DNA of 64,000 nt. Source: Minisyncoccota bacterium. GTDB lineage: Bacteria; Patescibacteriota; Minisyncoccia; Phycocordibacterales; UBA5272. A model generated the notes under the pieces. That model was not told the DNA's origin and ran no database searches. It saw nothing but the letters and a program-made list of their open reading frames with translations. Made by a program: the position numbers and the translations under genes. The stretch spans positions 177,021-241,020 of the forward strand of contig JBAZJW010000001.1 in NCBI GenBank assembly GCA_041651055.1, written 5' to 3'. This document shows, piece by piece, positions 7,285 to 26,285 of this stretch (its first letter is position 1; each line of letters begins with the position of its first letter).

Positions 7285-8340
7285 TTATTTTTCCACAACA
7301 TCATTTACAAGATATGTGTAAATAGAAATAAACGCAAAGAGTAAACTCATCGTAAGAGAGCCTAAGAAAATACCAATAGGGCCGAAAAAGATAATACCAC
7401 CCAAAACAGAGAGAAGAACAAAGAGTGGATGGATCTGTAATTTACGACCAACAAGCTTCGGACCAAGAACATTATCAATCATACCGACAGCAATAGCTCC
7501 CCATATCATGAGACCTACAGCAGAAACAGTATTTCCAACGACGAAGAGATAGATGACGCCCGGAATAATGATCAGCGCTGTACCAATTCCAGGAATAAGT
7601 GCCGCTATAACCGTAAGCGTTCCCCAGAGGATACTATTTGGAATTCCGAAGATTGTGAATCCAATAGTAGTGAGAATTCCTTGTATAAGAGCAATAAGGA
7701 GGCTTCCTTTTACAACAGAGTTCACCGCTGACTCGAGGCGTTCAAAAACAATTTTATCATCCTTATCATCAAGAGGACTTAGCTTAATGATTGCATCTTT
7801 TACCTTAGAACCATCTCGGAGTAAGTAGTAGAGTGAAATAAAGAAAATGAAAAGGTTAAGAAGAAGTGCAGAGATTCCTGAAAGAGCAACACCGAGATGT
7901 TCGATAAGCCATGAAAGACCTTGCTTGATATACATATCGAGATTTGCGGAAAGATTCAAGAAAAATTCACCTGTTCCAGGTACTATCTTTTCAAATGTCT
8001 GCCCAGCGCTTTGAAGTACAGTGACAGCGAGGTCTTGTCTATTTTCTCCCTGAATCGTAGAGCTGTAGAGCGCAACTGCTTCATGGAATATTTGAGTGCC
8101 TAGAAATGTGAGAGGCAAAATAATACAAACGAGACTCACAAAAACAGTAGAGAGAGAAGCAAGTGCCTCTCTATTACCAAAAACACGCAAGAGCTTCCTA
8201 TATAGAGGCTGAAGCACGACTGCGAACATTGCAGCCAAGGCAAGCGGGGCCAAGAATGGCTTGAGAATAAAAAATGATAAAAGTAAAATCCCTGCAAGAA
8301 GTAAAATCAAAAAAGGAAGCTGAAGTTTTCGGTTATTCAT
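7285..8340 (-). CDS. AI-2E family transporter (UPF0118/PerM-like)
   Basis: 351 aa polytopic protein, N-terminal [22 protein letters not shown] typical of the family. Confidence 0.75.
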
Positions 8341-8409
8341 ATACTTCTAATTATATCATAATGAGATAATTCCTTTTATATACGAAAATGATTCTGAAAG
8401 AGTGTGATT

Positions 8410-8805
8410 TTATCGATAGCCTTTTGATAAAAAATCAAAGAATCCCCAAAAAGAAAGCACAAAAGCGGTGAGTGCCGTCGGACAAAAAAGAATCCAAAAA
8501 GAGACACCCATATTCACAAGAAGAAAGAATCCTAAAAGAAATCCAAGCGTCCCAAAAACCATATCCATGATGACGTTTGCTGATGGCTCGATAATAGTAA
8601 TCGCCCACTCAAAAACCTCCCATGCAAGAAGAATAAAGAAAGAGCAGACTAGGGCCAACGTAAATCCAAATCCAAGTTTGTAAAAAAGTGAAGAAAGAAG
8701 AACTCCAGACAAAAAATGTACCAAAGACCAAGTGTCAATGTATGTGCCATGTTTCCAAATATCCATATCGTAATAGTACCATATTCCACAAAATAAAATT
8801 GACAC
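8410..8805 (-). CDS. hypothetical membrane protein
   Basis: 131 aa, four TM segments. Confidence 0.4.
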   Translation of the reverse strand: MSILFCGIWYYYDMDIWKHGTYIDTWSLVHFLSGVLLSSLFYKLGFGFTLALVCSFFILLAWEVFEWAITIIEPSANVIMDMVFGTLGFLLGFFLLVNMGVSFWILFCPTALTAFVLSFWGFFDFLSKGYR

Positions 8806-8864
8806 ACCTTTTATTTTTATATACTCTTTGGTTTGACAATGTTGTCAGATATAGGGAGTCTATC

Positions 8865-9158
8865 TTGTCAGAATACGGCAACGACAGCGATGGTGATAGC
8901 GGAGGCGGTGGCTACGGCGAAAATTACGCCGAAAGAAAGGATGACGGATGCTTCTTTTCCGAGGGGGTGTTCCAAGACAAGCACGCTCTCCAGGTGGTAC
9001 GGCTTCGTCACTTCCGAGACGCCGTCTTGAAACAAAGCAAATTCGGAAGAGAGGTCATCAGACTCTACTACGCGATGTCCCCATGGGCGTCGGCAAAAGT
9101 ACAGAAACATCCACTGGCCCGTGCGGCCATCCGGAGAACCGTCTGCTTGTTCGTGTGA
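8865..9158 (+). CDS. small Gly/Asp-rich hypothetical protein
   Basis: TTG start 6 nt after GGGAG RBS, in frame with ORF 8688..9158; followed by strong terminator; higher GC than surroundings. Confidence 0.3.
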   Translation: MSEYGNDSDGDSGGGGYGENYAERKDDGCFFSEGVFQDKHALQVVRLRHFRDAVLKQSKFGREVIRLYYAMSPWASAKVQKHPLARAAIRRTVCLFV

Positions 9159-9283
9159 ACAAGTGACGCACCCCTCAGCGCTCTCCCAAGAGCGCTGTTT
9201 TTATGTGTATAAGAAAAAGGTTGTTGTAATTATTCTAAAAAGGTAGTAGAGTGCAAACATCTTTTGTTCTTAGGAGAAGAATC

Positions 9284-9805
9284 ATGGAAGCACTTCCAAA
9301 AAATGGCTTGGGCATACTCTCCCAAAACGAGATTGATTTAGAAAAGATTCTAGAAATGGTTCCGGTCGAATGTCGAGGCTTGAGATTTGAAAGAGTTATG
9401 AGAACCTTTCATCCACAAGAAGTAACCAGTATGCTTGAACTTGGTTTTGCTATCGAATGGGCTCAGCGGAATAACGGGGCAAACAATCGTCTACTCGGCA
9501 CTTTTCTGCAAGCAGACGAAGACGATCCGCGAAAAAACTCAATTCCTTGTACTGCACGCGAATGGGAAGTTGCAGAGCTCGTTGCGGCCACAATGGTGAG
9601 GTGGTTACCCACGGCCGTTGGATGCTCCTTTCTTCAAGCGGCATTTAAACAAGGAGGAGGAAGTATGAACTATACACTTCCAGACCCAGCCAAAGGAATA
9701 CCTTCATTTCCCTCATCCCCACCGGAAGCAGTAAACGACCCTGGTCCAATTACTGGCGGAGGGGGTGATGAAAATGACGGAGATGATGACTGGCCTATGA
9801 CATGA
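9284..9805 (+). CDS. hypothetical protein
   Basis: ATG preceded by AGGAGA RBS; acidic Gly-rich C-terminus. Confidence 0.35.
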   Translation: MEALPKNGLGILSQNEIDLEKILEMVPVECRGLRFERVMRTFHPQEVTSMLELGFAIEWAQRNNGANNRLLGTFLQADEDDPRKNSIPCTAREWEVAELVAATMVRWLPTAVGCSFLQAAFKQGGGSMNYTLPDPAKGIPSFPSSPPEAVNDPGPITGGGGDENDGDDDWPMT

Positions 9806-9851
9806 AAAACAAAAGGTACAACTTGAACAAACCGCTCCGGCGGTTTTATTT

Positions 9852-10625
9852 TTATACTACCGTAAACAGCACAATTACTCCTTTGAAAAATATTCTGTCG
9901 ATGAGGGGCAATCTAAGACCTGCCACACGTGTACGTTCGAAATGTTCCTTCACCGTATTGTTCACAAATTCAGGCAAGGGGATTCCTAGATCTTTTGCTT
10001 CTCTTGCAAGGTCAAAAGAAAGTCCTACGGAATTATAGAGAATGGTACGTTGCAGTGTAAGGAATCTTTTTCGTAGTACGCCCGTCTTATCCTCCTTAAG
10101 CATTCTTGTGACCTCGCTCACCCCGAATTCCATATGACCAATCTCCTCATTCAAAATCTTACCGGATAATTCACTGAGTGCCCCATCTGTATGATGCTCA
10201 AGTTCCCTCAAGAAAGAAATATTCAATCCTTCTACGATGAAATTTTGTATGAAGACGCACGCTTCATAATCTTTTCTTTCGATAGCATTAGACATTTCTT
10301 TATCCATGGTACGAAGATATGGAGATACCTGAGAATCATTACGTGGATGTGATCCCACATATGCTGTGAGCAGTTCAAGGTGTATGTCCTCTTCTCTCTG
10401 TTGTTTCAAGAGAAAATCCCGAGCGTAAGCATTGGGTGCGAAAGCTGACATTTTTCTACAATAATCAATAGCAATAGTCTCACCGAAGATGATTTGTAAT
10501 AAATAATGATACCGTGCTTTGCTATATTCTTTCGATTCAGTGGAGGGGTAGGTGAGCGCGTGTACGGACATGATGATAAGAATGAGTATAGCAGGAAAGA
10601 AGGTGTGAGATTCTAAAGTTGACAC
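9852..10625 (-). CDS. ferritin-like diiron-carboxylate protein
   Basis: Two ExxH motifs (EEDIHLE and EEIGHME) in predicted helical segments. Confidence 0.45.
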   Translation of the reverse strand: MSTLESHTFFPAILILIIMSVHALTYPSTESKEYSKARYHYLLQIIFGETIAIDYCRKMSAFAPNAYARDFLLKQQREEDIHLELLTAYVGSHPRNDSQVSPYLRTMDKEMSNAIERKDYEACVFIQNFIVEGLNISFLRELEHHTDGALSELSGKILNEEIGHMEFGVSEVTRMLKEDKTGVLRKRFLTLQRTILYNSVGLSFDLAREAKDLGIPLPEFVNNTVKEHFERTRVAGLRLPLIDRIFFKGVIVLFTVV

Positions 10626-10687
10626 TTTATTCCAAATACTCTAGAGTTGACGACGTAGCCCTTTCATCAACCAACAAGGATAGAATC

Positions 10688-11074
10688 ATGAACATCTTTA
10701 ACTGGAAACCCGTGGTCCGGCTCACTAACTTCGCCGGAAAATCGAGTGCAACAGGCACCCCGGCACTCCATTTCGAAGCCGAGATCGAGTGCCCTTTCTG
10801 CAGACGGTTTTCTGAAATTTCTACTGACGGCTTCACCCTCGGCAGTCCGACCTCAAAGCATCTGCCTTTGAGACTTGAATCCATCTTCAAGGAACTTGTT
10901 CAGCCACGGGAATGCAATTTCTGCGGCATCCTCTTTTCCTTGGTGCCGAAAGAAGTGCGTGACGACTTCGCCAAAGAAGTGCAGGCGCGCGTCCCTCCAG
11001 AATGGGTGGATGCCGAGATCGAAAAGCTCAAGAATCCGGTGGAGAAGGATCCGTTAAATCTCTTCGCGGACTGA
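10688..11074 (+). CDS. hypothetical protein with CxxC...CxxC zinc-ribbon-like motif
   Basis: ECPFCRR and CNFCGILF cysteine pairs; GC-rich relative to genome. Confidence 0.35.
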   Translation: MNIFNWKPVVRLTNFAGKSSATGTPALHFEAEIECPFCRRFSEISTDGFTLGSPTSKHLPLRLESIFKELVQPRECNFCGILFSLVPKEVRDDFAKEVQARVPPEWVDAEIEKLKNPVEKDPLNLFAD

Positions 11075-11092
11075 GCCCGTTTCGAAACCATC

Positions 11093-11278
11093 ATGAACGA
11101 CAATGAACTAGCCGAATGGCTGAATCTTCCGCTTTCGCGGATAGAGGACGATCTCGCAAAATTGACTAAATGGCTCGTCAAAAGTGGCCAGTGGGATTCA
11201 AGAAGTGTGGTAGGGGACGCCCTTATCCGCATCGAAGGCCAACTGCAACGAATCAGGCAGGACCTTCCCAAACCCTGA
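11093..11278 (+). CDS. small hypothetical protein
   Basis: 61 aa ORF directly followed by terminator. Confidence 0.3.
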   Translation: MNDNELAEWLNLPLSRIEDDLAKLTKWLVKSGQWDSRSVVGDALIRIEGQLQRIRQDLPKP

Positions 11279-11298
11279 GAGGGAACTCTCTGAAAACA

Positions 11299-11330
11299 CG
11301 CCCCGCATCACGCGGGGCTTTTTTATTTTT
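11299..11330 (+). terminator. rho-independent terminator
   Basis: GCCCCGC-ATCA-CGCGGGGC hairpin followed by TTTTTTATTTTTT. Confidence 0.7.
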
Positions 11331-11365
11331 TAAATTGAGAAAAGAAAGACTCCTTCTCCTCTTAT

Positions 11366-12142
11366 TTACAATACATCTACCTTCTTGATAGCAAGAGTTA
11401 CCGTATCACCGCCCAATGAAACAATTCCATACTCTGCTTTCGGATTATGATTCCCATCATTCTCCATAAATGAAGGAACAGTAAAATATATTATCCCATC
11501 CATTTCTTCTTTACTGTAAAAATGTGTATGTCCACTGAAGACAGCAAGAACTTTCTCAGATTTCTTCAAGACATTCCTTACAAAGAATTTATTATTGATT
11601 GATGCGCGCTCTGGTCGTTCCTTAAAATAATAATTATTCTCCATGCTTTGATTATCGAGTGGATGATGACAGTACACAATAACTTTATGCTCTGTCTTTT
11701 CTAAATCCTCATTTAGCCACACGAGCTGCTCTTCACTTATATAGTAAGGACCTCGAGGCTCAGTAACATTACCATCGAGCACGACATGATGGTAACCACC
11801 CAAGTCAAATGAATAATAACTCTTCTTCTCACCAACGAGCGAAGCCCATGTTTCTCTGGTGAGATTTCTTACGTCATGATTTCCAGCAACATGTTTTACT
11901 GTTGTCTTTGTTGAAAGAAGAGTCAATGCTTCCTTGTATGTTTCGACATCTTTTTCAGCATTCTCGTCATGAATAAAATCACCAAGATTAATAACTAAAT
12001 CACAGGCATCCATTTCACCCTTCAACTTAGGTATCAATTTTTCATACTCTTCACCGTACACGTTTACATATTCTAGTCCTCTCAGAGTTGGATAATTGGA
12101 GTTCTCTCCGTGGTGAATATCAGTAATGAGAAATATTTTCAT
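11366..12142 (-). CDS. metallophosphoesterase (calcineurin-like)
   Basis: MKIFLITDIHHG, GDFIHDEN, GNHD motifs. Confidence 0.8.
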   Translation of the reverse strand: MKIFLITDIHHGENSNYPTLRGLEYVNVYGEEYEKLIPKLKGEMDACDLVINLGDFIHDENAEKDVETYKEALTLLSTKTTVKHVAGNHDVRNLTRETWASLVGEKKSYYSFDLGGYHHVVLDGNVTEPRGPYYISEEQLVWLNEDLEKTEHKVIVYCHHPLDNQSMENNYYFKERPERASINNKFFVRNVLKKSEKVLAVFSGHTHFYSKEEMDGIIYFTVPSFMENDGNHNPKAEYGIVSLGGDTVTLAIKKVDVL

Positions 12143-12179
12143 ACGTACATTTAATCTACTAAGATAGGCCGATCAGGCA

Positions 12180-12575
12180 TTATGCATCTTGTTTTTTGTA
12201 CTGCGAGAGACCGAGAATATTTCCTTCGGAATCCTTAAACCAAGCCAAGAATCCCATTTCTCCATTTTCTCCCAGAGGCGTCTTACCTCGCACAACAGCG
12301 CCACCATTCTCAACAATTTTTTGTAACGCTAGATCAATATCCGCGACATCAACATAAAACATTGGATGAGGCATAGCGGGGTCACGTTTACTGGAGCCAC
12401 CATTAATGAAACCTGCTTCGACTGGTTGCATTTTTTCATTGACCTCTCCTGTTTGCCAACTCGTGTAGCCAAATTGTTCCCAGTCAAAAGGTTTCCAATC
12501 GAAGACGTTTTGATAAAAAGATTTTGCTCTATCTTTATCGTCCCACGGAAATTCAAAATGTGTAACTTTGTTCAT
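12180..12575 (-). CDS. VOC family protein (glyoxalase/bleomycin-resistance fold)
   Basis: VTHFEFPWDDKDRAKSFYQNVFDWK N-terminus typical of VOC family. Confidence 0.65.
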   Translation of the reverse strand: MNKVTHFEFPWDDKDRAKSFYQNVFDWKPFDWEQFGYTSWQTGEVNEKMQPVEAGFINGGSSKRDPAMPHPMFYVDVADIDLALQKIVENGGAVVRGKTPLGENGEMGFLAWFKDSEGNILGLSQYKKQDA

Positions 12576-12643
12576 AGTGAAACAATTATAGCACTTCTTT
12601 GTTCTAAAAAATCACGAATTGAAGAAGGAAATTCAAACAGTTT

Positions 12644-13456
12644 TTAATCAACCAATGGGAAAATCGCTGATGATCCTTTTGTAAAGTCTTCCACCAAACT
12701 TGGGGTTCCTGCTATGAGGTTTGTGTTTCTATAATCGTAGGTAGTAGCTCCAATATTAACAACAACTCCACCCGCCTCAGACACCAACAGGCTTCCAGGT
12801 GCGAAGTCATAATCTTTTCCAAACGGGTCATAACATATTCTTGCTTCTATTTTTCCCGTGGCAACCAGCACAAATTCATAACCAGAACATATTGTCTGTA
12901 GCAAGAGAGATTTTTCTCGCACCTTATTTCTGAGTTCTACATTTGCCGGTTTAGCCTGATTAGTTTCTAGAGCGACAACTGATTGATTTGTAGGGCGACT
13001 ACTAATACTGATTCTTTTCCCATTTTCGAAAGCACCTTTACCTTTTTCTGCATGATACATCACATCATTTCTAAAATCATAAATCGCAGAAAAAATTACC
13101 TGACCATCTTCAATCAAAGCAACCATTGTTGTACAAAATGGCATCCCTCTAACAAAGTGCAGAGTCCCATCTATCGGGTCCACAAGCCATAGTTTCTTGT
13201 GATCACGGCTACCACCAAATTCTTCACCAGCAAATTCTATCGTTGGGTCAATTTTATTAAATTCAGTTTTAAGATATGACTCAACGTCATGGTCAAGTTG
13301 TGTAACCACGTTATGTGGTGACTCATCCTTTTGTGCAATTACTTCTACCTTGCCATAAAAGGGTAGAGTAATGCTTCTTGTTGAACGAATAATTGGTAAA
13401 ACCTTTTCCGCAATATTTTCCATATGGTTGATTATATCATTTGATGAAGACGACAC
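12644..13456 (-). CDS. inositol monophosphatase family protein
   Basis: WLVDPIDGT signature and downstream Asp-rich metal-binding motifs. Confidence 0.8.
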   Translation of the reverse strand: MSSSSNDIINHMENIAEKVLPIIRSTRSITLPFYGKVEVIAQKDESPHNVVTQLDHDVESYLKTEFNKIDPTIEFAGEEFGGSRDHKKLWLVDPIDGTLHFVRGMPFCTTMVALIEDGQVIFSAIYDFRNDVMYHAEKGKGAFENGKRISISSRPTNQSVVALETNQAKPANVELRNKVREKSLLLQTICSGYEFVLVATGKIEARICYDPFGKDYDFAPGSLLVSEAGGVVVNIGATTYDYRNTNLIAGTPSLVEDFTKGSSAIFPLVD

Positions 13457-13462
13457 TGAAAC

Positions 13463-13759
13463 CTACTTATCTTCCTTAGAAAAACCCCATTGCCATTTTG
13501 GTTTGTCTCCTTTTACATAACAAATACGTATGAGGCCAGCGGTTAATAGTGCCACTGGCACGATAAAAGTAAAGAGAACTTCTCGTGCTGGTGCGTTTTT
13601 ATCAACAATTAAACTAAGGCCAACAAGAAGCTCTACGTAGACAAAAATAGCTAGCCACCCTTGCCATGTCGCTGGGGTCCAACCCCAGCCATAGAGCTTT
13701 CTTTTGAACCAAAGCTTCTTCGGATTGTCTTTAAGATATTCAATATATTCTTTAATCAT
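13463..13759 (-). CDS. hypothetical membrane protein
   Basis: 98 aa, two to three TM segments. Confidence 0.35.
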   Translation of the reverse strand: MIKEYIEYLKDNPKKLWFKRKLYGWGWTPATWQGWLAIFVYVELLVGLSLIVDKNAPAREVLFTFIVPVALLTAGLIRICYVKGDKPKWQWGFSKEDK

Positions 13760-13797
13760 GCATTTAATTATAGCAAACTAACAACATACTTCGTACT

Positions 13798-13819
13798 TGA
13801 GGGGATGAATTGGAACAAA
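13798..13819 (+). repeat. degenerate copy (#0) of the GAGCTGGGRC-N3-TGGGACGA-N2-GTTGGAAC intergenic motif
   Basis: GAGGGGATGAATTGGAACAAAT shares the GGGA..G..TTGGAACAAwT core with copy #1. Confidence 0.3.
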
Positions 13820-13821
13820 TC

Positions 13822-14154
13822 TTAAAAAGTAAGAGCTTCGATTCCACGCTTAATAGCCACAAATCCATACCCCCACAAAAATGGGAGCCATACTGGCATA
13901 ATTCCAAATAAGGAATTTCTGGTAAATGTCTCTACTCCAGTAGCTATAAAAAAGTATTCGAATATAATCATTACAACAAATCCAAAAAGTAAAACGAAAA
14001 TATCTTTTTTAGTACATTTAATAAGATAAAGTGAAAGAGAAATTATTAAGATGTAGAGTAACGTTAAATAATAATCATTTAGAATAATTGGAATAAGTCC
14101 AATCATAACGAGAACAGGGAGGGATACCATGAAAATATATTTCACTTGTTGCAT
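13822..14154 (-). CDS. hypothetical membrane protein (cassette 1)
   Basis: 110 aa, three TM segments. Confidence 0.35.
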   Translation of the reverse strand: MQQVKYIFMVSLPVLVMIGLIPIILNDYYLTLLYILIISLSLYLIKCTKKDIFVLLFGFVVMIIFEYFFIATGVETFTRNSLFGIMPVWLPFLWGYGFVAIKRGIEALTF

Positions 14155-14178
14155 ACTTGTAGTATAGCATTGGATAAT

Positions 14179-14207
14179 TCTGTGGGACGAGGTTGGAACA
14201 ATTATTT
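14179..14207 (+). repeat. intergenic motif copy #1
   Basis: TCTGTGGGACGAGGTTGGAACAATTATTT. Confidence 0.5.
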
Positions 14208-14756
14208 CCCAAAGAGATATTCAAAAGCCTCATTTCGAACACCTTCAAAATCATGCGACACATCAAAATATTTAATCGCGTATTTCTCACATTCTTGCCT
14301 CAAGTATTTACTAAACTCAATCATTTCATCAATCATGGACAACATTTCTTCATCAGAAACACTCTTCGTCCAGTCTATATCACCCTGATGATGCTCTCTT
14401 ACCAAGGCAAGCTTTTCATCTTTCGTTAACTCTGCGTAACCTAAGAAGCAACACTTAACTGGTTTCCCGGCATCAATAAGCTCACTAACTTGGCTTGGCA
14501 AAAGTGAATCACCTTCGATGAGATAGTCACGTTCTTCTTTGAAAAAGAAATTAAAGAAGTGATTTACTAGTGGCCATATTTTCTTTGGTCTATCAAGCAA
14601 AGAATCTTGGTACTTCAAACCAATCTCTGGGACGCCATGTACAACCGCACCGAAGAGAACGTCGAGAGGGAAATAGGGGATCTGTTTTTCAGCAACAGCC
14701 CTACGTGCAAGTAGTGTCTTTCCTGAACGTGACGCGCCGGCAAGTAGATATAACAT
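14202..14756 (-). CDS. P-loop NTPase, putative small-molecule kinase (cassette 2)
   Basis: Walker A GASRSGKT near N-terminus. Confidence 0.5.
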   Translation of the reverse strand: MLYLLAGASRSGKTLLARRAVAEKQIPYFPLDVLFGAVVHGVPEIGLKYQDSLLDRPKKIWPLVNHFFNFFFKEERDYLIEGDSLLPSQVSELIDAGKPVKCCFLGYAELTKDEKLALVREHHQGDIDWTKSVSDEEMLSMIDEMIEFSKYLRQECEKYAIKYFDVSHDFEGVRNEAFEYLFGK

Positions 14757-14837
14757 TTGATAATTATATCATTTATTTATGTAAACACACCAAAGATTAA
14801 AGTATAGATTTCTTTATTCTGTATAGTTATTTTACTT

Positions 14838-14867
14838 AGCTGGGACTGTGGGACGATATTCGAACGG
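14838..14867 (+). repeat. intergenic motif copy #2
   Basis: AGCTGGGACTGTGGGACGATATTCGAACGG. Confidence 0.55.
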
Positions 14868-14876
14868 TTTTAGTTT

Positions 14877-15593
14877 CTACTTCAAAGCAAACGGGTTGAA
14901 GTTTGTCCCGTGATCGTAGGTATCCAACCCCTCCTTCTCCTTAACAATTTTAATCACCCTTCTAGTAACTGGTAGGGCAAGAACCTCCCATGTAGTACAG
15001 AAAAGCACAGTAGATATAACAAGCGGTACAAGCTCTGGAAGAGTAAACCATCCGGCAAAGTAGAAGACAGCAAAGAAAGCAATTCCGTTATCTACGATTT
15101 GTCCGAATAATGTTGAAATCACAAGTCTTGCATTGAGATACTTTCCTTTGAAATGCAGTTTCATTTTCGCAACTATGTATGAGTTTGTCAGTTCACCAGA
15201 AAAGAACGCAACAATAAAAGCAACAGCAACGATTGGTGAAGCTTTAAAGATAGCGTTGAATGCATCATTTAATTCAAATGACGGGTTTGGAACGATGCTG
15301 TAAATGTATGTAAGTGTTGAAGCTAGTAACATACATCCAAATCCAGTCCATACGACTTTTCTAGTAACTCTGTATCCATATACTTCAGTAAAGATATCAG
15401 CAAAAATATAAACAAATGGATACGCTAACGCACCAACTGAGAAAACAAACGTCCCTATGTAAAAAGTTTTTAAAGAAGTAAATACCCCTACAAGAAGAAC
15501 CGTAACCCACAGCATCGCAAAAATGATTAAGTACTTATGAGGCTGATGCGCCGAAATCACTGGATCCGTTATGAGTGCGTTGTTTTGGGTCAT
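14877..15593 (-). CDS. YhhQ/VUT family membrane protein, putative queuosine-precursor transporter (cassette 3)
   Basis: YPFVYIFADIFTEVYGYRVTRKVVW resembles the YhhQ conserved block. Confidence 0.55.
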   Translation of the reverse strand: MTQNNALITDPVISAHQPHKYLIIFAMLWVTVLLVGVFTSLKTFYIGTFVFSVGALAYPFVYIFADIFTEVYGYRVTRKVVWTGFGCMLLASTLTYIYSIVPNPSFELNDAFNAIFKASPIVAVAFIVAFFSGELTNSYIVAKMKLHFKGKYLNARLVISTLFGQIVDNGIAFFAVFYFAGWFTLPELVPLVISTVLFCTTWEVLALPVTRRVIKIVKEKEGLDTYDHGTNFNPFALK

Positions 15594-15627
15594 ATGTGTA
15601 AAGTCTAGCGCATATATCTAAAAAAGC

Positions 15628-15656
15628 GAGCTGGGGCCATGGGACGAAGTTGGAAC
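15628..15656 (+). repeat. intergenic motif copy #3
   Basis: GAGCTGGGGCCATGGGACGAAGTTGGAAC. Confidence 0.55.
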
Positions 15657-15708
15657 TTTTTTTGGAAAAGAGGTAGGATACTGTCAGACAACCAAGAAAG
15701 GGTTCGAT

Positions 15709-16320
15709 ATGAACATTCCATCTTTCCAAATGACCGGCTACGTTAAGACCGTGCTCGTTGCCCACCAACATGACACACATGTTTCCACCCCATCGGAAAA
15801 GATCAAACTGATCCAGGGGCAGGGTGTGCTGCATGACAACCACTACGGGCCACGTCTCGTAGACATTCGCGATTCGAGCATTCTTCGTTTCGGTCTTCCG
15901 AAAGGTATGGAGTGCTTCAATGCAAGACAGTGGAGCGCGGTCTCCCAGGAGGAGCTTGATGAAATCTCGCAGCTCATATATATCCCGGGCATCAATCATG
16001 GACTTCTGGGTGAAAACCTTGTGATCTCCGGAATTCCGAGGTTTACCCAGCTCCCTTCGGGAACTCAACTATTCTTCAAGGGGCAGAAAGGCGAGCTGCG
16101 CTCAACTGTACTTTGTGTTCATAAAGAAAATAACCCTTGCCATCTGCCCGGCGAGATGATTCAAGCGCAGTTTCCAGGACAAGAGAAACTTGCGGGGGCA
16201 TTCACGAAGCATGCCAAGCGTCGGCGAGGCGTCGTGGGGTTCGTTATTTGTTCCGGCTTTGTGAAGAAGGGAGACACCGTCATCGCTGAAGTTCCGGAAC
16301 AACAACTCTACGAAGGATGA
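15709..16320 (+). CDS. MOSC domain protein (cassette 4)
   Basis: HGLLGENLVISGI block and conserved Cys typical of MOSC (YiiM-like) proteins. Confidence 0.6.
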   Translation: MNIPSFQMTGYVKTVLVAHQHDTHVSTPSEKIKLIQGQGVLHDNHYGPRLVDIRDSSILRFGLPKGMECFNARQWSAVSQEELDEISQLIYIPGINHGLLGENLVISGIPRFTQLPSGTQLFFKGQKGELRSTVLCVHKENNPCHLPGEMIQAQFPGQEKLAGAFTKHAKRRRGVVGFVICSGFVKKGDTVIAEVPEQQLYEG

Positions 16321-16336
16321 TGAGGCATTCGTTGCC

Positions 16337-16385
16337 GCCAAACAAAACCGCCAAGTCAGTTTTGTTTGGCGGTTTTGTTTTTGTT
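16337..16385 (+). terminator. rho-independent terminator
   Basis: 12 bp stem GCCAAACAAAAC/GTTTTGTTTGGC followed by GGTTTTGTTTTTG. Confidence 0.6.
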
Positions 16386-16393
16386 AAAACTAC

Positions 16394-16422
16394 GAGCTGG
16401 GACTGTGGGACGAAGGTGGAAT
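16394..16422 (+). repeat. intergenic motif copy #4
   Basis: GAGCTGGGACTGTGGGACGAAGGTGGAAT. Confidence 0.55.
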
Positions 16423-16473
16423 TAATTTATATAAAAGTGTAGAATAAAATCAATAGCACAAAGGAGAATACAA

Positions 16474-16800
16474 ATGCTTACCGTAACCGAAGTCCCAACC
16501 AAGTCTATCCGGCTATCCGTCCAGATTGAAGATATGGAAATTGGAAGAGCTTGGCTTGTATTGATCAAAAATGACCTCCACTTAAAACCTTACGGCCTTC
16601 TTGAAGATGTGTGGGTTGACTCTAATCACAGAAAGCAAGGTCACGCCACAGCTCTTGTGCAAAAGATCATTGAAATAGCTAAACAAGAAGGCTGTTACAA
16701 GATTATTGCAACAAGTCGTTTCGAACGAGAGAAAGTTCACGACTTATACAAACATCTGGGCTTTATTTCTCACGGATTTGAGTTCAGAATTAATTTGTAA
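16474..16800 (+). CDS. GNAT family N-acetyltransferase (cassette 5)
   Basis: VWVDSNHRKQGHATALVQKIIEIAKQEGCYKI acetyl-CoA binding motif A. Confidence 0.7.
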   Translation: MLTVTEVPTKSIRLSVQIEDMEIGRAWLVLIKNDLHLKPYGLLEDVWVDSNHRKQGHATALVQKIIEIAKQEGCYKIIATSRFEREKVHDLYKHLGFISHGFEFRINL

Positions 16801-16828
16801 AATAAATTCCAGTCAATCAAGAGTTGCA

Positions 16829-16858
16829 GACCCACTTCGGTGGGCTTTTCTTTTTCTA
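16829..16858 (+). terminator. rho-independent terminator
   Basis: CCCAC-TTCG-GTGGG hairpin followed by CTTTTCTTTTTC. Confidence 0.5.
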
Positions 16859-16864
16859 AAAACT

Positions 16865-16894
16865 CAAGCTGGGGCTCTGGGACGACGTTGGAAC
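16865..16894 (+). repeat. intergenic motif copy #5
   Basis: CAAGCTGGGGCTCTGGGACGACGTTGGAAC. Confidence 0.55.
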
Positions 16895-16960
16895 AGAATT
16901 ATTTACTTCGAGTTCTATAAAATAAGTAAGAATTTTCATGTAAAAACGTCATCATATATT

Positions 16961-17512
16961 ATGAAAGTAAAGCACTTGCAACAATCTGGGGAAAAGAGTA
17001 GTGTTAATAGTCTTAATAAAGACTATACTAAAGATATGCTTACTAAGAATCTTCAGCTTCTTAGCTACCTTACAAAGAAGCACCCTCATGCTTCAGTAAC
17101 TGTGTTAATTAAATTATGCTATTTAGTTGATTTAGTTAGTATTAAAAATGGTAGTGAGAAGATTTCAAATTTTACATATATCAGATACTTTTATGGACCT
17201 TTTGACAAAAGTATCTACACAGAATTAGACCAATTACTTGAAAGTGGTGTATTAATAGCAACACCAGAATACAAAGGCGATTCTGAAACAATAATTTATT
17301 CTTTCAACGAAGAAAAGAAACTAGATACTTCCGCTTTAGATAAAAATGAAATAGCTATTCTTGATGAAGTACTAGATTCACTCGATGGGTATGGAGCAAA
17401 GGCACTTACAGATGTTGCCTACAGTACTGCGCCTATGCAAGCACTTAACGCAACTTTAGGTGGTGACGAAAATCTTGGTGTTGAACTTAATCTAAACTTA
17501 GTAAGAGCTTAA
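16961..17512 (+). CDS. Panacea-domain (DUF4065, SocA/PanA-like) protein, candidate antitoxin
   Basis: VTVLIKLCYLVDLVSIKNGSEKISNFTYIRYFYGPFDKSIYTEL matches the KLLYLaD ... yGPv..vY core of the Panacea domain as I remember it; start set at ATG 16961 downstream of GNAT terminator. Confidence 0.45.
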   Translation: MKVKHLQQSGEKSSVNSLNKDYTKDMLTKNLQLLSYLTKKHPHASVTVLIKLCYLVDLVSIKNGSEKISNFTYIRYFYGPFDKSIYTELDQLLESGVLIATPEYKGDSETIIYSFNEEKKLDTSALDKNEIAILDEVLDSLDGYGAKALTDVAYSTAPMQALNATLGGDENLGVELNLNLVRA

Positions 17513-17517
17513 TTTTT

Positions 17518-18030
17518 ATGCCAATGTCTGACGCTGAACATCTAGCTTGTATTAAGCCACGTTCAGCATACATGGACTTCAGGTCATTAGAAGAATCTAC
17601 AGGTGAAGTTAATGCAAAGTATAAATTACTGACAAAAAAATTAGCAGGTGTTTATTTTTTTCACGTTCTTACAAAGAGTGGGATAACTTATCCTCAAGAA
17701 TATCGCATGGAGATACTCAGAAATGATTGGGAATCGCGTGAGCCCCATCCAAGAGGAATGCACCTTGATGAAGATGCTTCGTATTTAGGTTGTCAGCATT
17801 TCCATATGATGAGTGAAAGAGATGTACTCCTTAAAAGGAAAGAATTTCGTAATGGTTTCAATATAAGTGGGCTGTTAAGTCAGACAAAATTTACAGAAGT
17901 TACAGATTTTATAAAAAGAAGTGGAGGTGTCTACTCAAGAAAATCTAATGTAGTGATTCAAGAAGATATAGAGTCTGTTTTTAATAAAGGGGTTATATCG
18001 GATAAAATAAGAAATAAACTCGGGCTTTAA
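17518..18030 (+). CDS. hypothetical protein, candidate toxin partner of the Panacea-domain gene
   Basis: 170 aa ORF starting 6 nt after upstream stop; no recognisable domain. Confidence 0.35.
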   Translation: MPMSDAEHLACIKPRSAYMDFRSLEESTGEVNAKYKLLTKKLAGVYFFHVLTKSGITYPQEYRMEILRNDWESREPHPRGMHLDEDASYLGCQHFHMMSERDVLLKRKEFRNGFNISGLLSQTKFTEVTDFIKRSGGVYSRKSNVVIQEDIESVFNKGVISDKIRNKLGL

Positions 18031-18049
18031 TTATTCTTTTTTGTATAAG

Positions 18050-19711
18050 TTAAGATAATCCATCAATATACTGTATTGGTGTTATACCATAATCCCACAC
18101 AGTTGAACTTCTTGAAGGGTCAACTGCCCCATGAACCGCAACACCAAGAACACCATTGTCTTTATCAACTACTGGTGAACCACTCATTCCTTTGTAAATC
18201 GGTTTATCAATTGTAAATCTCTCAATACTAAGTATTCCTATACCGTTACTTTTTGAACTAATTTTTCCTTCGTAACATTGTGGAGTGTCATTGGTTCTAT
18301 ATCCAGGAAATCCAACAACCGTTATAGCCTCTTTAATTTGAGGAGTTTCAATTGTGCTTTTTTCAAGACTAAAGAATGTTACTGTTGTTGGTGCTAATAT
18401 TTTTAAAACTGCTAAATCAGGAATAGAGCTTTGTTTTACAACCTCAGCTTTGTATACGTCCTTAGTTTCAGAGTTGTAAACTTCAACTATTCCACAAGCA
18501 CCATCTATAACATGATAACAAGTTACAAGCCCAACATCTCTCAACATGAAAGCTGTGCCAGTATATCCGACAGAAGTTTTAATTACCCATATTGCACGTT
18601 TCAATTCATCAATTGCACTAACAGGTAAGTCTACTGAGTGTGGGTCTATTAAACGATTAAGCCTATTTTTAAACTTCCTGTATATTGGATCTTTCCCACT
18701 TCTGATAAATTTTAAGAAAGATATTTTCCCATATAAAACTGGTGTTAGATCTGGTTCATCTTGACGACTGGGATGTAATCTAAAATACACGTTCGAGGCA
18801 TTTACTTTTCCAAATCTTTCCCAAGCATATAATATTGTTCTCAATTCTCTAATGTATTTTCTGGAAACATTACTAAATTCATTAACGGTAAGGCCAGTAA
18901 CTTCTTGTCTCATATAATGTCTCTGTAACCTAACTTTTGACTGATTAATTGAGAAATTATTTTTTTGAATGATTGAAGTTAATTTTTGTCCACATGTAAT
19001 TATTCCGTGTGAACGGGAAACAATATCAAGATTTAGTTCTCTAGAGTTTGTAGAAAAAGTAATGTCATCTGCATATCTTGTATATAAACAATTAGTTTCT
19101 TTTGCTAACTTTTGTAAATCATTATCTAATGTATAGCAAATTAGATTTGATATAACTGGAGAAGTGGGGGCTCCTTGTGGAAGCTTACCCTCATAACAAC
19201 AAATTTGAGCAAGTAAAATTGCAACTTCTCTTGGGAAAGAAAAAGCTGTTGATTGAAATAATCCTATTATACGACCTACATGAATTGATGGGAAGAAGTT
19301 TTCTAAATCAATATTAAAAACAAGATTTTTTCTTGCGTGTAGTCTTGCGTTATCTAAAATATCTTTATCTTTACAAAATCCATAAACAGATGATTTTGGT
19401 TTATAAGCTAAGTATAGAATATATGCCAATTTTTTTTGTAAAATTTTAAGATTAGATATTGGTGCTAAAATCTCTCTTTGTCCACCACTTTTTTTCTTAA
19501 TATAAAATTTTGTATACGGAACTGGTTTATCTGGTCTGTAAAGTAGGTAAATTATTGTAGAGTAGTCAACCTCTAAAAGGTCAGCAACGTCTTGTTTGCT
19601 TTTTAGTGCTCTAAAAATTTTTAGAATATCGTCATCACTTCTTGTTAAGGTTGGTTTCATTTCTGTGTAAAAGAGAGAGTGGAATAATTCTTCCTCCTGC
19701 AAAACAAACAC
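18050..19711 (-). CDS. retron-type reverse transcriptase fused to C-terminal trypsin-like (S1) serine protease
   Basis: RT motifs KKKSGGQREI, NARLH (NAxxH), FNIDLENFFPSI, LPQGAPTSPVISN, YTRYADD, RQEVTGLTVN (VTG); C-terminal GTAFMLRDVGLVTCYHV (His), IPDLAVL (Asp), GMSGSPV (Ser) triad; GTG start. Confidence 0.8.
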   Translation of the reverse strand: MFVLQEEELFHSLFYTEMKPTLTRSDDDILKIFRALKSKQDVADLLEVDYSTIIYLLYRPDKPVPYTKFYIKKKSGGQREILAPISNLKILQKKLAYILYLAYKPKSSVYGFCKDKDILDNARLHARKNLVFNIDLENFFPSIHVGRIIGLFQSTAFSFPREVAILLAQICCYEGKLPQGAPTSPVISNLICYTLDNDLQKLAKETNCLYTRYADDITFSTNSRELNLDIVSRSHGIITCGQKLTSIIQKNNFSINQSKVRLQRHYMRQEVTGLTVNEFSNVSRKYIRELRTILYAWERFGKVNASNVYFRLHPSRQDEPDLTPVLYGKISFLKFIRSGKDPIYRKFKNRLNRLIDPHSVDLPVSAIDELKRAIWVIKTSVGYTGTAFMLRDVGLVTCYHVIDGACGIVEVYNSETKDVYKAEVVKQSSIPDLAVLKILAPTTVTFFSLEKSTIETPQIKEAITVVGFPGYRTNDTPQCYEGKISSKSNGIGILSIERFTIDKPIYKGMSGSPVVDKDNGVLGVAVHGAVDPSRSSTVWDYGITPIQYIDGLS

Positions 19712-19828
19712 ACTTACATAGCAACATTTGCCAAAAACACAAGGGCACGTATCATCTCACCTTAGATACATCGTCGCGTATACACAACGAATAGCAATTT
19801 CCACTCTCTCTTTTAAAAAGAAACTTAC
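19671..19828 (-). ncRNA. candidate retron msr/msd-like non-coding RNA
   Basis: 13 nt perfect inverted repeat AAGAGAGAGTGGA (19801-19813) / TCCACTCTCTCTT (19671-19683, minus-strand sense) bracketing about 117 nt directly upstream of and overlapping the RT start; TATAAT box about 25 nt upstream on the minus strand. Confidence 0.25.
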
Positions 19829-19918
19829 CAGTTGTATTATAAAACAATTACATTATTAATCCTAAAAATGTATTATTTACTCATGTGTATCTGTTTAAGT
19901 GAGTTGTATCTTCTGTTA

Positions 19919-20128
19919 TTATTTTATAATAAATTTTGCACCGGTCTTCTCCATTAAATCTCCTAGTTGCTTACTCGTCTGCCCCAAACTATTAAATAAT
20001 TCTACAATTCGGGAATCTTTTTCTTGAAGTTGTGCTACAAGTTTTCTGTTATCAATAAATAAACCAGCAGTAGCAATACAAGATATTACTAACAACACTG
20101 CTAAAAGTAGAGTGATTTTAGATTTCAT
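19919..20128 (-). CDS. small secreted or membrane-anchored coiled-coil protein
   Basis: 69 aa, N-terminal MKSKITLLLAVLLVISCIATAG signal/lipobox-like segment. Confidence 0.35.
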   Translation of the reverse strand: MKSKITLLLAVLLVISCIATAGLFIDNRKLVAQLQEKDSRIVELFNSLGQTSKQLGDLMEKTGAKFIIK

Positions 20129-20452
20129 ACGTAAGGTTCTATATTAAATTTTTGGTAGCAAAACACCGCCATAGAAATAGGAGAACCTTACGAGTAGACC
20201 CACTCCATGGCGGAGCTTTTATCACAAGGTATTAGGTTTGTTTTGTAAACATAGCATAACAGGGTACAAGGAACCTCTCCCTCAGTAAACTTTTGTCGTC
20301 ACAAAAGTTTCTTCGGGCAACTCTCGTGGTTTCTTTTGCTAAAGAAACATCACTCCGAGTATTCGAGTCCTTGCCGTGAAGGACCCAACGTCCTTCACTT
20401 ACCCCAGCTCACACGACAAAAAAGCGTACTTCGTACTCGATGAAAAGTGTGA

Positions 20453-20523
20453 GCTGGGGTACAAGGACTCGAACCTCGATACTCAGGACCAAAACCTGAT
20501 GTCCTACCATTAGACGATACCCC
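20453..20523 (-). tRNA. tRNA-Gln (anticodon UUG)
   Basis: Cloverleaf folds by hand: 7 bp acceptor stem (U1-A72), U8, D arm GTCT/GGAC, anticodon stem TCAGG/CCTGA with loop TTTTGGT (U33, anticodon TTG), T arm CGAGG-TTCGAGT-CCTTG, discriminator G, no encoded CCA. Confidence 0.75.
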
Positions 20524-20813
20524 AAGATGTAAGTTTTTAGTTGATAGTTATTATTTTTTAGTTAATGCAAAATGAAATTCATTGTGCGGCATGCAATACC
20601 AAAAAAATGACTATCAGTTATTAGCTAGGAGAAATTAAATTCAGAGAATTTCTTACCCCTAACTCCTAACCGTAAACTCCTAACTAACCAAAACACAATA
20701 CCATTTTTGAGAGATTTTTGGAAGAGGGAAGGAAAGATTCTCGGTGAGAGCGCTGTCACAGTAAGCTTTTTGAAATTATACACAGCGTCCACAGAACACC
20801 ACGAAAATTTTGC

Positions 20814-24836: not shown

Positions 24837-25133
24837 TCATTGTGATTGTGTGAACAATCTTTCGAGGTCATCGAGACCATTTACGTGCAGTACTGTTCCA
24901 TCTCTCGTGGTTATGACAATATGAGGAACGACCTTTGCAGGATATTCCTCCATGAGCTCCTTCCATTTTGGTCCTCCGAAGAAGAACTCTTCAGGGACGA
25001 CGTTCTGAAGTCGGTGTTTAAGCAAGCTTTTGGCTCGAGCGCAAAAACCGCACGGCGGAGATATTCTGGTGAAAATCACGACTCCTCGGACCTCTTCGGA
25101 TGAGAGTGCTCTAGGTTGTTCGACGGCAAACAT
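24837..25133 (-). CDS. glutaredoxin/thioredoxin-like protein
   Basis: CGFC (CxxC) redox motif after a beta-strand VVIFTRISPP; start placed at internal ATG. Confidence 0.5.
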   Translation of the reverse strand: MFAVEQPRALSSEEVRGVVIFTRISPPCGFCARAKSLLKHRLQNVVPEEFFFGGPKWKELMEEYPAKVVPHIVITTRDGTVLHVNGLDDLERLFTQSQ

Positions 25134-25167
25134 CTTTTGTGAACCTTTCTGAAAGGAGAAGATTATC

Positions 25168-25210
25168 AACAAGGCGAGGCCTTGTAGCTACAAGGCCTCG
25201 CCTTGTTACC
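25168..25210. repeat. perfect palindrome (twin hairpin) AACAAGGCGAGGCCTTGT-AGCT-ACAAGGCCTCGCCTTGTT
   Basis: Each 18 nt arm is itself the hairpin ACAAGGC-GAG-GCCTTGT; a single arm recurs at 30735-30752. Confidence 0.6.
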
Positions 25211-25542
25211 AGCAAAAGTGCTGACACTTATTCATACCATATTTATATGGAAGCGGGCAAATGGGAAAATATTTAATACAACAATATTTAATATTCAAAT
25301 GAATCAAATGCATTTAATCCAAAAAACTCCTCTAGGCTTGCAGGGGTTCTCTGAATTAGTATTTACCTCTTTGTATTTAATTGAATATTATTACGAGCAG
25401 TCTGTATAAAAAAATAGAACCCCCAAAGTGGAGGTTCAGAATGGTCCTTAAGCATTCAATGTGTGAGGATGTTTCGTCAACGGACGATCCACACAGGTTA
25501 CGGAATGGGCGCCGAATGGCTCGGGCCCAACCACCACGCAGT

Positions 25543-26016
25543 TCAGGAGAACGTGCCCGCAGCGACCGTGCCAGCGTCGTCGGCCTGCTTCAGCGCAACT
25601 TCGTCGGCGCCGGGCTGATCCTTGGCCGTGTCGGTCGTGCCGGCGTCCTGCTGCTGTTGACCTTCGATGTTTTCACCAGCGCCGAACTGCTTTTCGCCGT
25701 GCAAAATATCGGTGGTGCCCGCCGCGGTCTTGGCCACGCCGCCTTGCTGCTGCTGGATCAATTTCGACTCGTCGTTGCCGATCTGGTTCACGGCGCCCGT
25801 GGTGCCTTGTTCCATCTGCGGGCTTTGGCCGGTGGCGGTCACGCTGATGTCGGCAGGTTGCGCGCCGGCGTTCACGGTGGTCTTGTGCGGATCGGAGGCG
25901 GCCAGCGCGTCGGGCTTCACGGCGGAATGGATCACATCGGTGCCGTGCGCGGCGCCAACGGCCTGATTCAAAAACAGCGCACCGAGGATCGAGAGACGCA
26001 ATTTCAAGTGGTTCAT
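25543..26016 (-). CDS. secreted Ala/Gly/Thr/Gln-rich protein encoded in a ~65% GC insert
   Basis: ATG preceded by AGGAG RBS, signal peptide MNHLKLRLSILGALFLNQAVGAAHG; composition sharply different from flanks. Confidence 0.45.
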   Translation of the reverse strand: MNHLKLRLSILGALFLNQAVGAAHGTDVIHSAVKPDALAASDPHKTTVNAGAQPADISVTATGQSPQMEQGTTGAVNQIGNDESKLIQQQQGGVAKTAAGTTDILHGEKQFGAGENIEGQQQQDAGTTDTAKDQPGADEVALKQADDAGTVAAGTFS

Positions 26017-26285
26017 GGAAAGCTCCTGGTTGAATTGAAGGGAACGGGAACAACGTGCCACAACGGGATGTTGCGACAAGTAATACTCTACCACATACAT
26101 CAAAATCCTGTCAAGGGATATGGGGATAGTCAAAAGTCTATAAAGTTGAAAGTTCATAAAGTAAATACGGCATACAAATATTCAATGATTCAATTTTCAA
26201 TATTCAAACGATAATCAAAACCACTCCCTCAGTATCCACTTTTGACTTTACGGACTTTCTAAACTTTATAGACTATACTAAGACC

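Follow-up and report, generated by a model that had tools for sequence, protein, structure and literature searches.

The window analyzed here is a 64,000-nt stretch of the Minisyncoccota contig JBAZJW010000001.1 (positions 177,021 to 241,020), and the element in question lies at 20259-20452 on its minus strand, directly behind the 3' end of a tRNA-Gln gene. It is a single unit of about 190 bases composed of a spacer hairpin, an inverted arm (arm I) that carries a hairpin (P2), a structured core, and D2, a direct copy of the tRNA 3' end. The family to which it belongs sits immediately 3' of tRNA genes in Paceibacteria-like genomes of the candidate phyla radiation (CPR) and represents a recurrent, covarying, target-matched insertion unit. 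Its members are probably non-autonomous, target-matched insertion modules, either mobile elements or recombination sites, which rebuild an integration hot spot. The family is apparently undescribed.

Architecture of the unit in the window

Coordinates refer to the window, and the unit is described on the tRNA (minus) strand. A repeat search yielded a perfect 15-nt inverted repeat, TACCCCAGCTCACAC, at 20400-20414 and 20447-20461, with 32 nt between its arms, and a perfect 12-nt inverted repeat, TTCGAGTCCTTG, at 20362-20373 and 20462-20473. Arm I of the window is thus a perfect complement of 15 + 12 nt, split by a 26-nt insert. In a pattern search of the 64 kb the exact 15-mer was found at two sites only, with a chance expectation of about 1e-4 for exact 15-mers; the exact 12-mer was likewise found at two sites only, plus one site with a single mismatch. 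The repeat search also gave perfect hairpins of 9 bp (20376-20384/20390-20398) and 10 bp (20287-20296/20301-20310) and a direct 11-mer, GGGTACAAGGA, at 20262 and 20457, which is part of the 18-nt D2. A preliminary description of this DNA had listed the two hairpins, a minus-strand tRNA-Gln, and a tRNA-end fragment at 20261-20276. Every listed repeat and hairpin is real, the tRNA gene lies at 20453-20524, and the fragment falls within D2 (20260-20277). The inverted repeat next to the tRNA had been correctly called perfect, but its size was given as 13 nt with a distance of 33 nt instead of 15 and 32. The parts of the locus are as follows.

20453-20524, minus strand: intact tRNA-Gln(UUG), called by ARAGORN; Rfam tRNA match of 59.9 bits at 20454-20524
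20447-20473, minus strand: target segment D1, made up of the last 20 nt of tRNA-Gln (20454-20473, T loop to discriminator) and 7 trailer nucleotides (20447-20453)
20415-20446, minus strand: spacer, 32-nt loop containing a weak hairpin (GTAC-GAA-GTAC) and a run of six T (sequence, fold)
20400-20414, minus strand: arm I part a, GTGTGAGCTGGGGTA, perfect complement of the acceptor 3' strand, the discriminator, and 7 nt of trailer
20376-20398, minus strand: P2 hairpin of 9 bp with a 5-nt loop, splitting arm I exactly at the acceptor/T-stem boundary (repeat search)
20362-20373, minus strand: arm I part b, CAAGGACTCGAA, perfect complement of the T-stem 3' strand and T loop
20278-20361, minus strand: structured core (covariance-model alignment, fold, alignment A3)
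20329-20336/20341-20348, minus strand: 8-bp hairpin of the core
20287-20296/20301-20310, minus strand: 10-bp hairpin of the core
20283-20287, minus strand: TACTG motif of the core, in which AGAG is also present
20260-20277, minus strand: D2, GAGGTTCCTTGTACCCTG, decayed direct copy of the tRNA 3' end (repeat search, covariance-model alignment)
20259-20407, minus strand: match of covariance model R1, 45.4 bits, E = 7e-11 over 620 kb

Compared with the tRNA 3' end, D2 has lost 5 nt (GAGTC), and CCCCAG has become CCCTG. The core is of a divergent subtype with a longer hairpin in place of the usual 5-bp GTA-loop hairpin, and the spacer is the counterpart of the terminator-like hairpin found beside arm I elsewhere. 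On the tRNA strand, a 222-nt stretch has a predicted folding energy of -101.2 kcal/mol (z = -9.0), and none of 200 shuffles was equally stable. In the predicted fold, arm I is paired with the tRNA end and forms a three-way junction with the spacer and P2.

Recurrence of the unit behind tRNA genes

With a 30-nt probe from the body of tRNA-Gln, 119 metagenomic loci with diverse 3' ends were collected. Of 107 related metagenomic tRNA-Gln genes, about a quarter carry such a unit. In 22 of the 107, 10 nt or more of the gene's own last 24 nt recur as an exact inverted copy within 260 nt downstream, and in 19 of the 107, 11 nt or more recur as an exact direct copy over the same distance; upstream controls gave 0 in both cases, and a looser scan for inverted or direct tRNA-end copies gave similar numbers. 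The copies occupy stereotyped positions past the tRNA (arm I at +56 to +80, D2 at +130 to +220). In eight loci including the window, an insert of 24-26 nt separates the halves of the inverted copy. As L057 and L120 do not differ in sequence, these loci represent seven distinct sequences, and in all seven the insert is placed at the same acceptor/T-stem boundary. Covariance model R1 was built from seven other loci with the window left out. Besides the window, it detected units outside its training set in L090, L033, L037, L117, L061, L111, L103, L060, L005, L083, and L107.

On the tRNA strand, the units share a common plan. Past the tRNA comes a spacer, in most cases a terminator-like hairpin, and then the first half of arm I, which is complementary to the discriminator and the acceptor 3' strand. 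P2 comes next, with a GGG or CTGC loop; the second half of arm I, beyond P2, is the complement of the T-stem 3' strand and T loop. A long hairpin, P3, has a GAG/C internal loop and an apex of the GA-GCGAAGC-GAA type; it is followed by (G)TACTG, a 5-bp hairpin with a T-GTA-A loop, GAGA, and finally D2. Unit length is 100-200 nt, with a conserved core of about 100 nt, of which shorter and longer subtypes exist.

Two relatives bear directly on the proposal in the preliminary description that the fragments are scars of the neighboring island. In L005, which has a different island and no retron, the acceptor and T stem of tRNA-Gln differ from those in the window, and direct copies of this gene's own end lie downstream together with inverted copies and a hairpin at the same boundary. 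No unit is found at tRNA-Gln of L004, where a gene for an HUH Rep protein is present instead. The fragments are related to insertion at the tRNA 3' end, as had been supposed, but they are not scars of this particular island, for which a second copy at the far end is also missing. Nor are they inert leftovers, since they form the two ends of a conserved, covarying unit of about 150-200 nt that also occurs alone.

Among the module-free tRNA-Gln loci (e.g. L116, L104, L028, L128, and L038), common trailer motifs, CCAACTCGTGCTAGCACGAG... and ...TGCATAGCTACTGAGTGTAGCCAGCCAAAGCTAAAAAGCACCC followed by a terminator, were observed. These shared motifs suggest that the first ~120 nt past module-free tRNA-Gln genes hold another conserved small RNA or leader.

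Covariation and the folded strand

Alignment of seven units with MAFFT and folding with RNAalifold resulted in 33 pairs, 24 of them compensatory. In the alignment of 23 matches (A3), 93.6% of the cells were paired, compared with 59.5% for shuffled columns and 38-47% for slid partners, both sides changed in 32 of the 33 pairs, and 9 of the 9 pairs of P2 covaried; A3 was fitted to the model, and its pair counts are inflated toward structure. Wobble pairs were biased, with 31 G.T against 12 A.C pairs. As G.T exceeds A.C, the folded strand has the sense of the tRNA. The bias points to the strand only and fits RNA and single-stranded DNA alike.

The preliminary description had presented the segment as a plus-strand pseudo-copy of the tRNA, which is misleading: given the wobble bias toward the tRNA strand, the segment is an arm antisense to the tRNA end. 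A disrupted second tRNA-Gln or tRNA-like gene on the plus strand can accordingly be given next to no probability. The order T loop, T stem, acceptor 3' strand, and trailer is indeed reproduced there, but the T-stem 5' strand is lost, neither a D arm nor an anticodon arm is present, and the wobble pairs favor the other strand. Both ARAGORN and Rfam, in gathering and E-value modes, found the minus-strand tRNA-Gln only, by which this candidate is ruled out. Because the trailer is shared as well, DNA of the locus was copied and not a gene.

Covariation of this strength is also what would be expected of a structured RNA, which could be a small RNA or a processing element whose transcription accompanies or follows that of tRNA-Gln. 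It might act as an acceptor/T-stem mimic for RNase P or RNase Z, as an antisense clamp on the pre-tRNA 3' end, or as the leader of a downstream gene, and the match to the tRNA would exist because the RNA must pair with or imitate it. The 31 to 12 excess of G.U-type over A.C pairs on the tRNA-sense strand agrees with this explanation. Further points in its favor are that some I arms keep the wobble of their own tRNA (TGAGG or GGAGG against CCTTG), that P2 arises at the very position from which the D and anticodon arms of a genuine tRNA project, and that downstream genes are frequently on the same strand, the repeat of L005 even reaching into the 5' leader of the next gene. However, a terminator-like hairpin usually stands between the unit and the tRNA, no conserved promoter was seen, and the cargo genes show no relationship to one another, are in some cases encoded on the opposite strand, and in others are missing. 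No Rfam family matched, even at permissive thresholds. By itself, a structured RNA also gives no account of the duplicated tRNA end with the ancestral trailer, the tandem arrays, and the arms of L061 that match a trailer alone (see below). We consider it an unlikely explanation when taken on its own; RNA and insertion roles could coexist.

The Rfam searches covered the window and 16 + 4 module loci at gathering and permissive thresholds and returned nothing but tRNA; the best non-tRNA matches were chance microRNA-like hairpins far below threshold. The covariance-model check that had been proposed in the preliminary description thus identified no known structured RNA beyond the tRNA. Three ribozymes were compared by eye and rejected: the unit has no CUGAUGA...GAAA core of a hammerhead, its 5' junction is not U.G and a P3-P9 core of a group I intron is missing, and it is far too small for a group II intron.

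The arms follow the adjacent tRNA

Units are also present behind tRNA-Asp (L061) and tRNA-Thr (L087), where they were found with R1 and the repeat scan. They have cores of the same families, and their arms match their own tRNA, including its trailer or CCA; the arms of the second unit of L061 match the trailer alone. The anti-T-loop of arm I reads ACTCGAA, ATTCGAA, GCTCGAA, ACTTGAA, or GATTGAA, following the tRNA of the locus, and the T-loop variants TTCGAGT, TTCGAAT, TTCGAGC, TTCAAGT, and TTCAATC are mirrored to the single base. This match is kept where D2 does not include the T loop, so arm I tracks the tRNA itself. The duplicated segment is of variable length, 12-38 nt.

A bolder interpretation, to which we assign a low probability, is that the units constitute a new class of nucleic-acid-guided mobile element, with a core of ~100 nt, a putative enzyme acting in trans, and a 5' arm that pairs with about 20 nt of the target strand. 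If arm pairing directed insertion, re-targeting to Gln, Asp, Thr, or even a trailer would need only new arms. Several features are shared with IS200/IS605 elements, the exon- and intron-binding sites (EBS-IBS) of group II introns, and the bridge RNAs of IS110: an internal segment is complementary to the sequence that directly precedes the insertion point on its 5' side, the element has one fixed orientation relative to the target strand, a short conserved single-stranded motif, (G)TACTG, is flanked by hairpins, and the target was, judging from the sequences, apparently re-programmed by a change of the arm. In contrast to these systems, no TnpA, TnpB, IS110 recombinase, intron-encoded protein, or ribozyme core was seen, the putative guide of the module would pair with its target in cis when integrated, and the complementarity extends over 20 nt compared with 4 in IS200/IS605.

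Insertion, tandem units, and cassettes

At loci without a unit, the sequence is often ...CAG/CCAACTCGTGC..., in which the CCA end is encoded. Where a unit is present, C and the spacer come after the tRNA, and a CCAAC-type trailer returns directly past D2. In L024, L059, L119, L083, and L005, the sequence after D2 was identical to the unit-free trailer at 15-17 of 22 positions, compared with a 95th percentile of 13 and a maximum of 14 for the background in a position-anchored test. Since the ancestral trailer resumes after D2, the unit is an insertion. The spacer and arm I co-occur in every module-bearing locus; the spacer is never found without arm I, and hence the inserted unit comprises spacer, arm I, core, and D2. 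The unit also occurs alone between the tRNA and the ancestral trailer.

Tandem units are present in L138 (two), L005, L090, and L061. In L005, a 239-nt unit is doubled at 91% identity and flanks a DUF5677 gene. Genes or whole elements, including one with a serine recombinase and Rep, are located at later D/spacer junctions in L005, L060, and L107, which indicates that each unit recreates a usable target. The cargo past the units includes NUDIX, DUF4145, DUF5677, DUF4440, Cdd1, and ABC transporter genes and, in two loci, an open reading frame (ORF) resembling a DNA methyltransferase (translated sequence read by eye, no Pfam match). In the window, the cargo is a small ORF followed by a retron.

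Integration classically leaves behind a directly repeated tRNA 3' end, and the locus is a hot spot with different islands in every relative. The fragments could on these grounds be att-type duplications or rearrangements left over from integrase events at tRNA-Gln, without structure or function of their own, and the degenerate D2 of the window would suit such an origin. Scars of this kind would not be expected to have a core that covaries across loci and is matched by an independent covariance model, to carry a hairpin of 24-26 nt at one boundary in seven distinct sequences, or to include an inverted arm that tracks single-base differences of the T loop. A matching repeat at the far end of the island is also missing. 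The explanation by inert scars is already largely refuted, and we regard it as very improbable.

Proposed mode of action

Our preferred explanation remains an insertion module that rebuilds its own target. The module would act as a folded single strand of tRNA sense, in which arm I may pair with the tRNA 3' end across the spacer to give a hairpin with a three-way junction. This hairpin would set the insertion point directly after ...CAG/C, where a putative enzyme supplied in trans would recombine or cleave. Enzymes of mobile elements, namely large serine recombinases and HUH Rep proteins, are encoded at the same tRNA end in other loci. With a fresh target copy at its end, the unit would rebuild the site whenever it inserts, and a rebuilt site would explain the tandem units, the cassettes at later D/spacer junctions, and the build-up of islands such as the retron island of the window.

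Several observations weigh against this explanation. No recombinase or transposase was found in or beside the unit or among the 39 ORFs scanned in the window, a scan that was not exhaustive, and no free or circular form was found. No copy was detected in the viral, phage, or plasmid collections searched. Only about 25 units are available, all from tRNA loci picked by one 30-nt tRNA-Gln probe, and the pair counts of A3 lean toward structure as noted above. Covariation and the G.T bias fit a function as RNA equally well, and the proposal gives no account of how the arms come to match different tRNAs. The window copy itself has a decayed look: arm I is perfect, but D2 is degenerate and the core is altered, with the GTA-loop hairpin replaced, so this copy may be an inactive fossil.

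Comparison with known systems

Two arm patterns searched in IMG/VR gave chance or coding matches only, and two core patterns gave no match. Searches with blastn returned no match in plasmids and only tRNA-Gln genes in phages. No description of such a unit was found in a full-text literature search, whose coverage was incomplete, so that this absence is weak evidence. The unit does not show the defining features of any known family for which these could be tested.

Among the closest parallels in working principle are two folded single-strand recombination sites, attC of integrons and the CTX-phi attP(+) hairpin used by XerCD. In these, too, a variable structured region is enclosed by two inverted arms, conservation is seen in shape and covariation instead of sequence, and the arm duplex imitates the chromosomal target. 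Recombination takes place at the 3' edge of one arm, as we infer for the module. Like attC, the module has an extra-helical feature in one arm (P2 here, extrahelical bases in attC) and is associated with arrays of small, unrelated single-gene cassettes (NUDIX, GNAT, glyoxalase, DUF4440) by a fixed chromosomal site; in L005 and L060, units lie between genes. The resemblance to attC extends to the working principle only. RYYYAAC/GTTRRRY boxes and a dif-like 28-mer are absent from the module, no IntI or Xer gene was seen beside its site, and its arms are copies of a tRNA 3' end that end in ...CAG/C and change with the tRNA. Moreover, unlike attC and CTX-phi, the module is often without any gene, and its role as single-stranded DNA is putative.

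With tRNA-targeted integrative elements and cis-mobilizable elements (CIMEs), the module shares insertion at a tRNA 3' end, a direct repeat of 12-25 nt or more, and tandem accumulation at one site, and its mobilization would be in trans. It differs from them in its size of only 100-200 nt and in the occurrence of one core family at three different tRNAs. A classical attP has neither a covarying core nor an inverted target copy, both of which are present in the module. The test for a classical att duplication in the window revealed no direct repeats of the tRNA end at both island ends and no integrase among the 39 ORFs scanned.

When the unit was compared with IS200/IS605-type and other single-strand HUH elements, hairpins and a target-complementary arm were present, HUH Rep was encoded in L004 and L107 only, and no Y1 transposase was seen. 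A looser resemblance is to the ssoA origins of rolling-circle plasmids, which contain the RSB TTATGCCGAGAAAATTT and the CS-6 sequence TAGCGT (PMC4598088). Like ssoA, the units are orientation-specific folded elements of ~150 nt; many have a CGAGAA-type motif at the base and TAGCGA or GCGAAGC in the apical loop of the long hairpin, and HUH Rep genes lie at the same tRNA end in L004 and L107. The likeness of the motifs is partial, however, and ACTCGAA is fully explained as the complement of the T loop. In contrast to miniature inverted-repeat transposable elements, the module has no fixed terminal inverted repeats, as its arms vary among Gln, Asp, and Thr, and its duplication of 12-38 nt is not of fixed length.

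The island and the enzymes at tRNA-Gln

Above 20525, the core genes are syntenic in the related genomes L003-L005, and downstream synteny resumes only at 9852-10625, which corresponds to 1283-2014 of L005. Synteny is thus broken over 10626-20452, and this segment is a variable island of 9.8 kb.

10626-20452, no strand: variable island downstream of tRNA-Gln (synteny with L003-L005; Pfam, PADLOC)

As stated in the preliminary description, the non-coding region borders the island, with tRNA-Gln between syntenic core genes and variable DNA. The non-coding stretch spans 20129-20706 (578 bp), provided that a 69-amino acid ORF at 19919-20128 is real. The island contains the module, this ORF, a type XI retron, and genes with SocA/Panacea, GNAT, MOSC, and Vut_1 domains, as well as an inositol monophosphatase, a glyoxalase, and a metallophosphoesterase; its G+C content is 0.31-0.34 at 17-20 kb. 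The island is context, and the module is distinct from the rest of it. The tRNA-Gln locus holds a different island in every relative. There is only one direct copy of the tRNA end in the window, 177 nt from the tRNA (end to start), and no far-end att repeat of the island was present in 8000-20300 or elsewhere in the window. In the syntenic flanks, no tyrosine recombinase was seen.

Immediately downstream of these tRNA-Gln genes, the gene family encountered most often is a large serine recombinase.

L028, L038, L053, L054, L072, L078, L080, L107, L113, and L137 (10 loci): serine recombinase abutting the tRNA-Gln 3' end

The serine recombinase elements are a family that integrates at ...CCCAG/CA. 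In L107 and L137, the C terminus of the serine recombinase is encoded by tRNA antisense. A G2P-like HUH Rep (PF23343) is encoded beside tRNA-Gln in L004 (3630-4577, plus strand) and in L107 (1917-2855, minus strand, oriented coordinates) and probably belongs to an integrated element of rolling-circle or inovirus-like type. In L107, HUH Rep is paired with a serine recombinase.

Two interleaved inverted repeats, CGTAAGGTTCT/AGAACCTTACG and AAAACACCGCCATAGA/TCCATGGCGGAGCTTT, occupy 20130-20219, just upstream of the start of the 69-amino acid ORF, which is membrane-anchored. They had no counterpart in any fetched locus. Beside the retron, a SocA/Panacea-domain protein is encoded at 16706-17512 (plus strand), followed by a 170-amino acid protein without family match at 17518-18030 (plus strand); the two genes may form a toxin-antitoxin pair in the low-G+C part of the island. 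Outside the island, the region 25000-26200 has a G+C content of 0.53 compared with a background of ~0.41, long overlapping ORFs on both strands, and no Rfam hit. One of these ORFs encodes a low-complexity, secreted-looking protein. In L018, a phage from IMG/VR, the reverse complement of 7997-8051 reads like the 3' half of a tRNA whose T stem and acceptor strand are separated by 36 inserted nt. It lies among six phage tRNA genes and could be an interrupted or pseudo tRNA.

The type XI retron next to the unit

A 553-amino acid ORF at 18050-19711 on the minus strand (true start 19660) encodes a type XI retron reverse transcriptase (RT) fused to a trypsin-like protease (PADLOC RT-Protease_XI, E = 1e-171). 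The nearness of this gene suggested that the hairpins might be retron RNA, i.e. the msr-msd RNA of the type XI retron. The unit lies upstream of the RT-protease gene, which follows ~600 nt downstream on the same strand, and nested hairpins with flanking inverted repeats are retron-RNA-like. This origin is ruled out by two observations. First, L001 and L002, in which the RT is 70-71% identical, have DNA in common with the window only below ~19870 and no tRNA nearby. Second, a conserved candidate RNA with a1 and a2 repeats was located at 19668-19815, outside the unit, and recurs in six other RT-protease loci. Most module-bearing loci are also without an RT, and the probability left to a retron RNA is negligible.

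The candidate msr-msd of this canonical type XI retron at 19668-19815 (minus strand) has a perfect 17-nt a1 (19799-19815) and a2 (19668-19684) with 114 nt between them, and the end of a2 is separated from the RT start by 7 nt. This a1/a2 layout is repeated in six other RT-protease loci (L001, L002, and L142-L145; RT identity 47-71%), with compensatory a1/a2 changes and a conserved hairpin that contains U.G. Type XI had been listed without a recognizable noncoding RNA (Mestre 2020, PMC7736814), and a 2026 preprint gives noncoding RNA candidates solely for protease-less XI-like lineages (10.64898/2026.05.14.725207). In L145 (~1200-1240), another type XI retron follows the 3' end and terminator of a tRNA at a distance of about 270 nt; type XI retrons may land repeatedly at tRNA sites. 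The contig P0002 encodes an RT of 72% identity with the same synteny.

Implications

tRNA genes are classic landing sites for genomic islands, and such sites are normally viewed as passive. The element described here is small and non-coding and has a conserved fold; it contains both a copy and a complement of the tRNA end and restores its target behind itself. In CPR genomes it is located at the place where retrons, restriction-modification genes, serine-recombinase elements, and single-gene cassettes accumulate. Should its arms work as guides, the unit would be a compact, re-programmable insertion system, a CPR counterpart of the IS200/IS605 guides, EBS-IBS pairing, and bridge RNAs, and a builder of cassette and defense arrays. 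Otherwise, it remains an undescribed family of structured repeats that accounts for the organization of variable DNA in these reduced genomes, and the unit is a useful marker for island borders.

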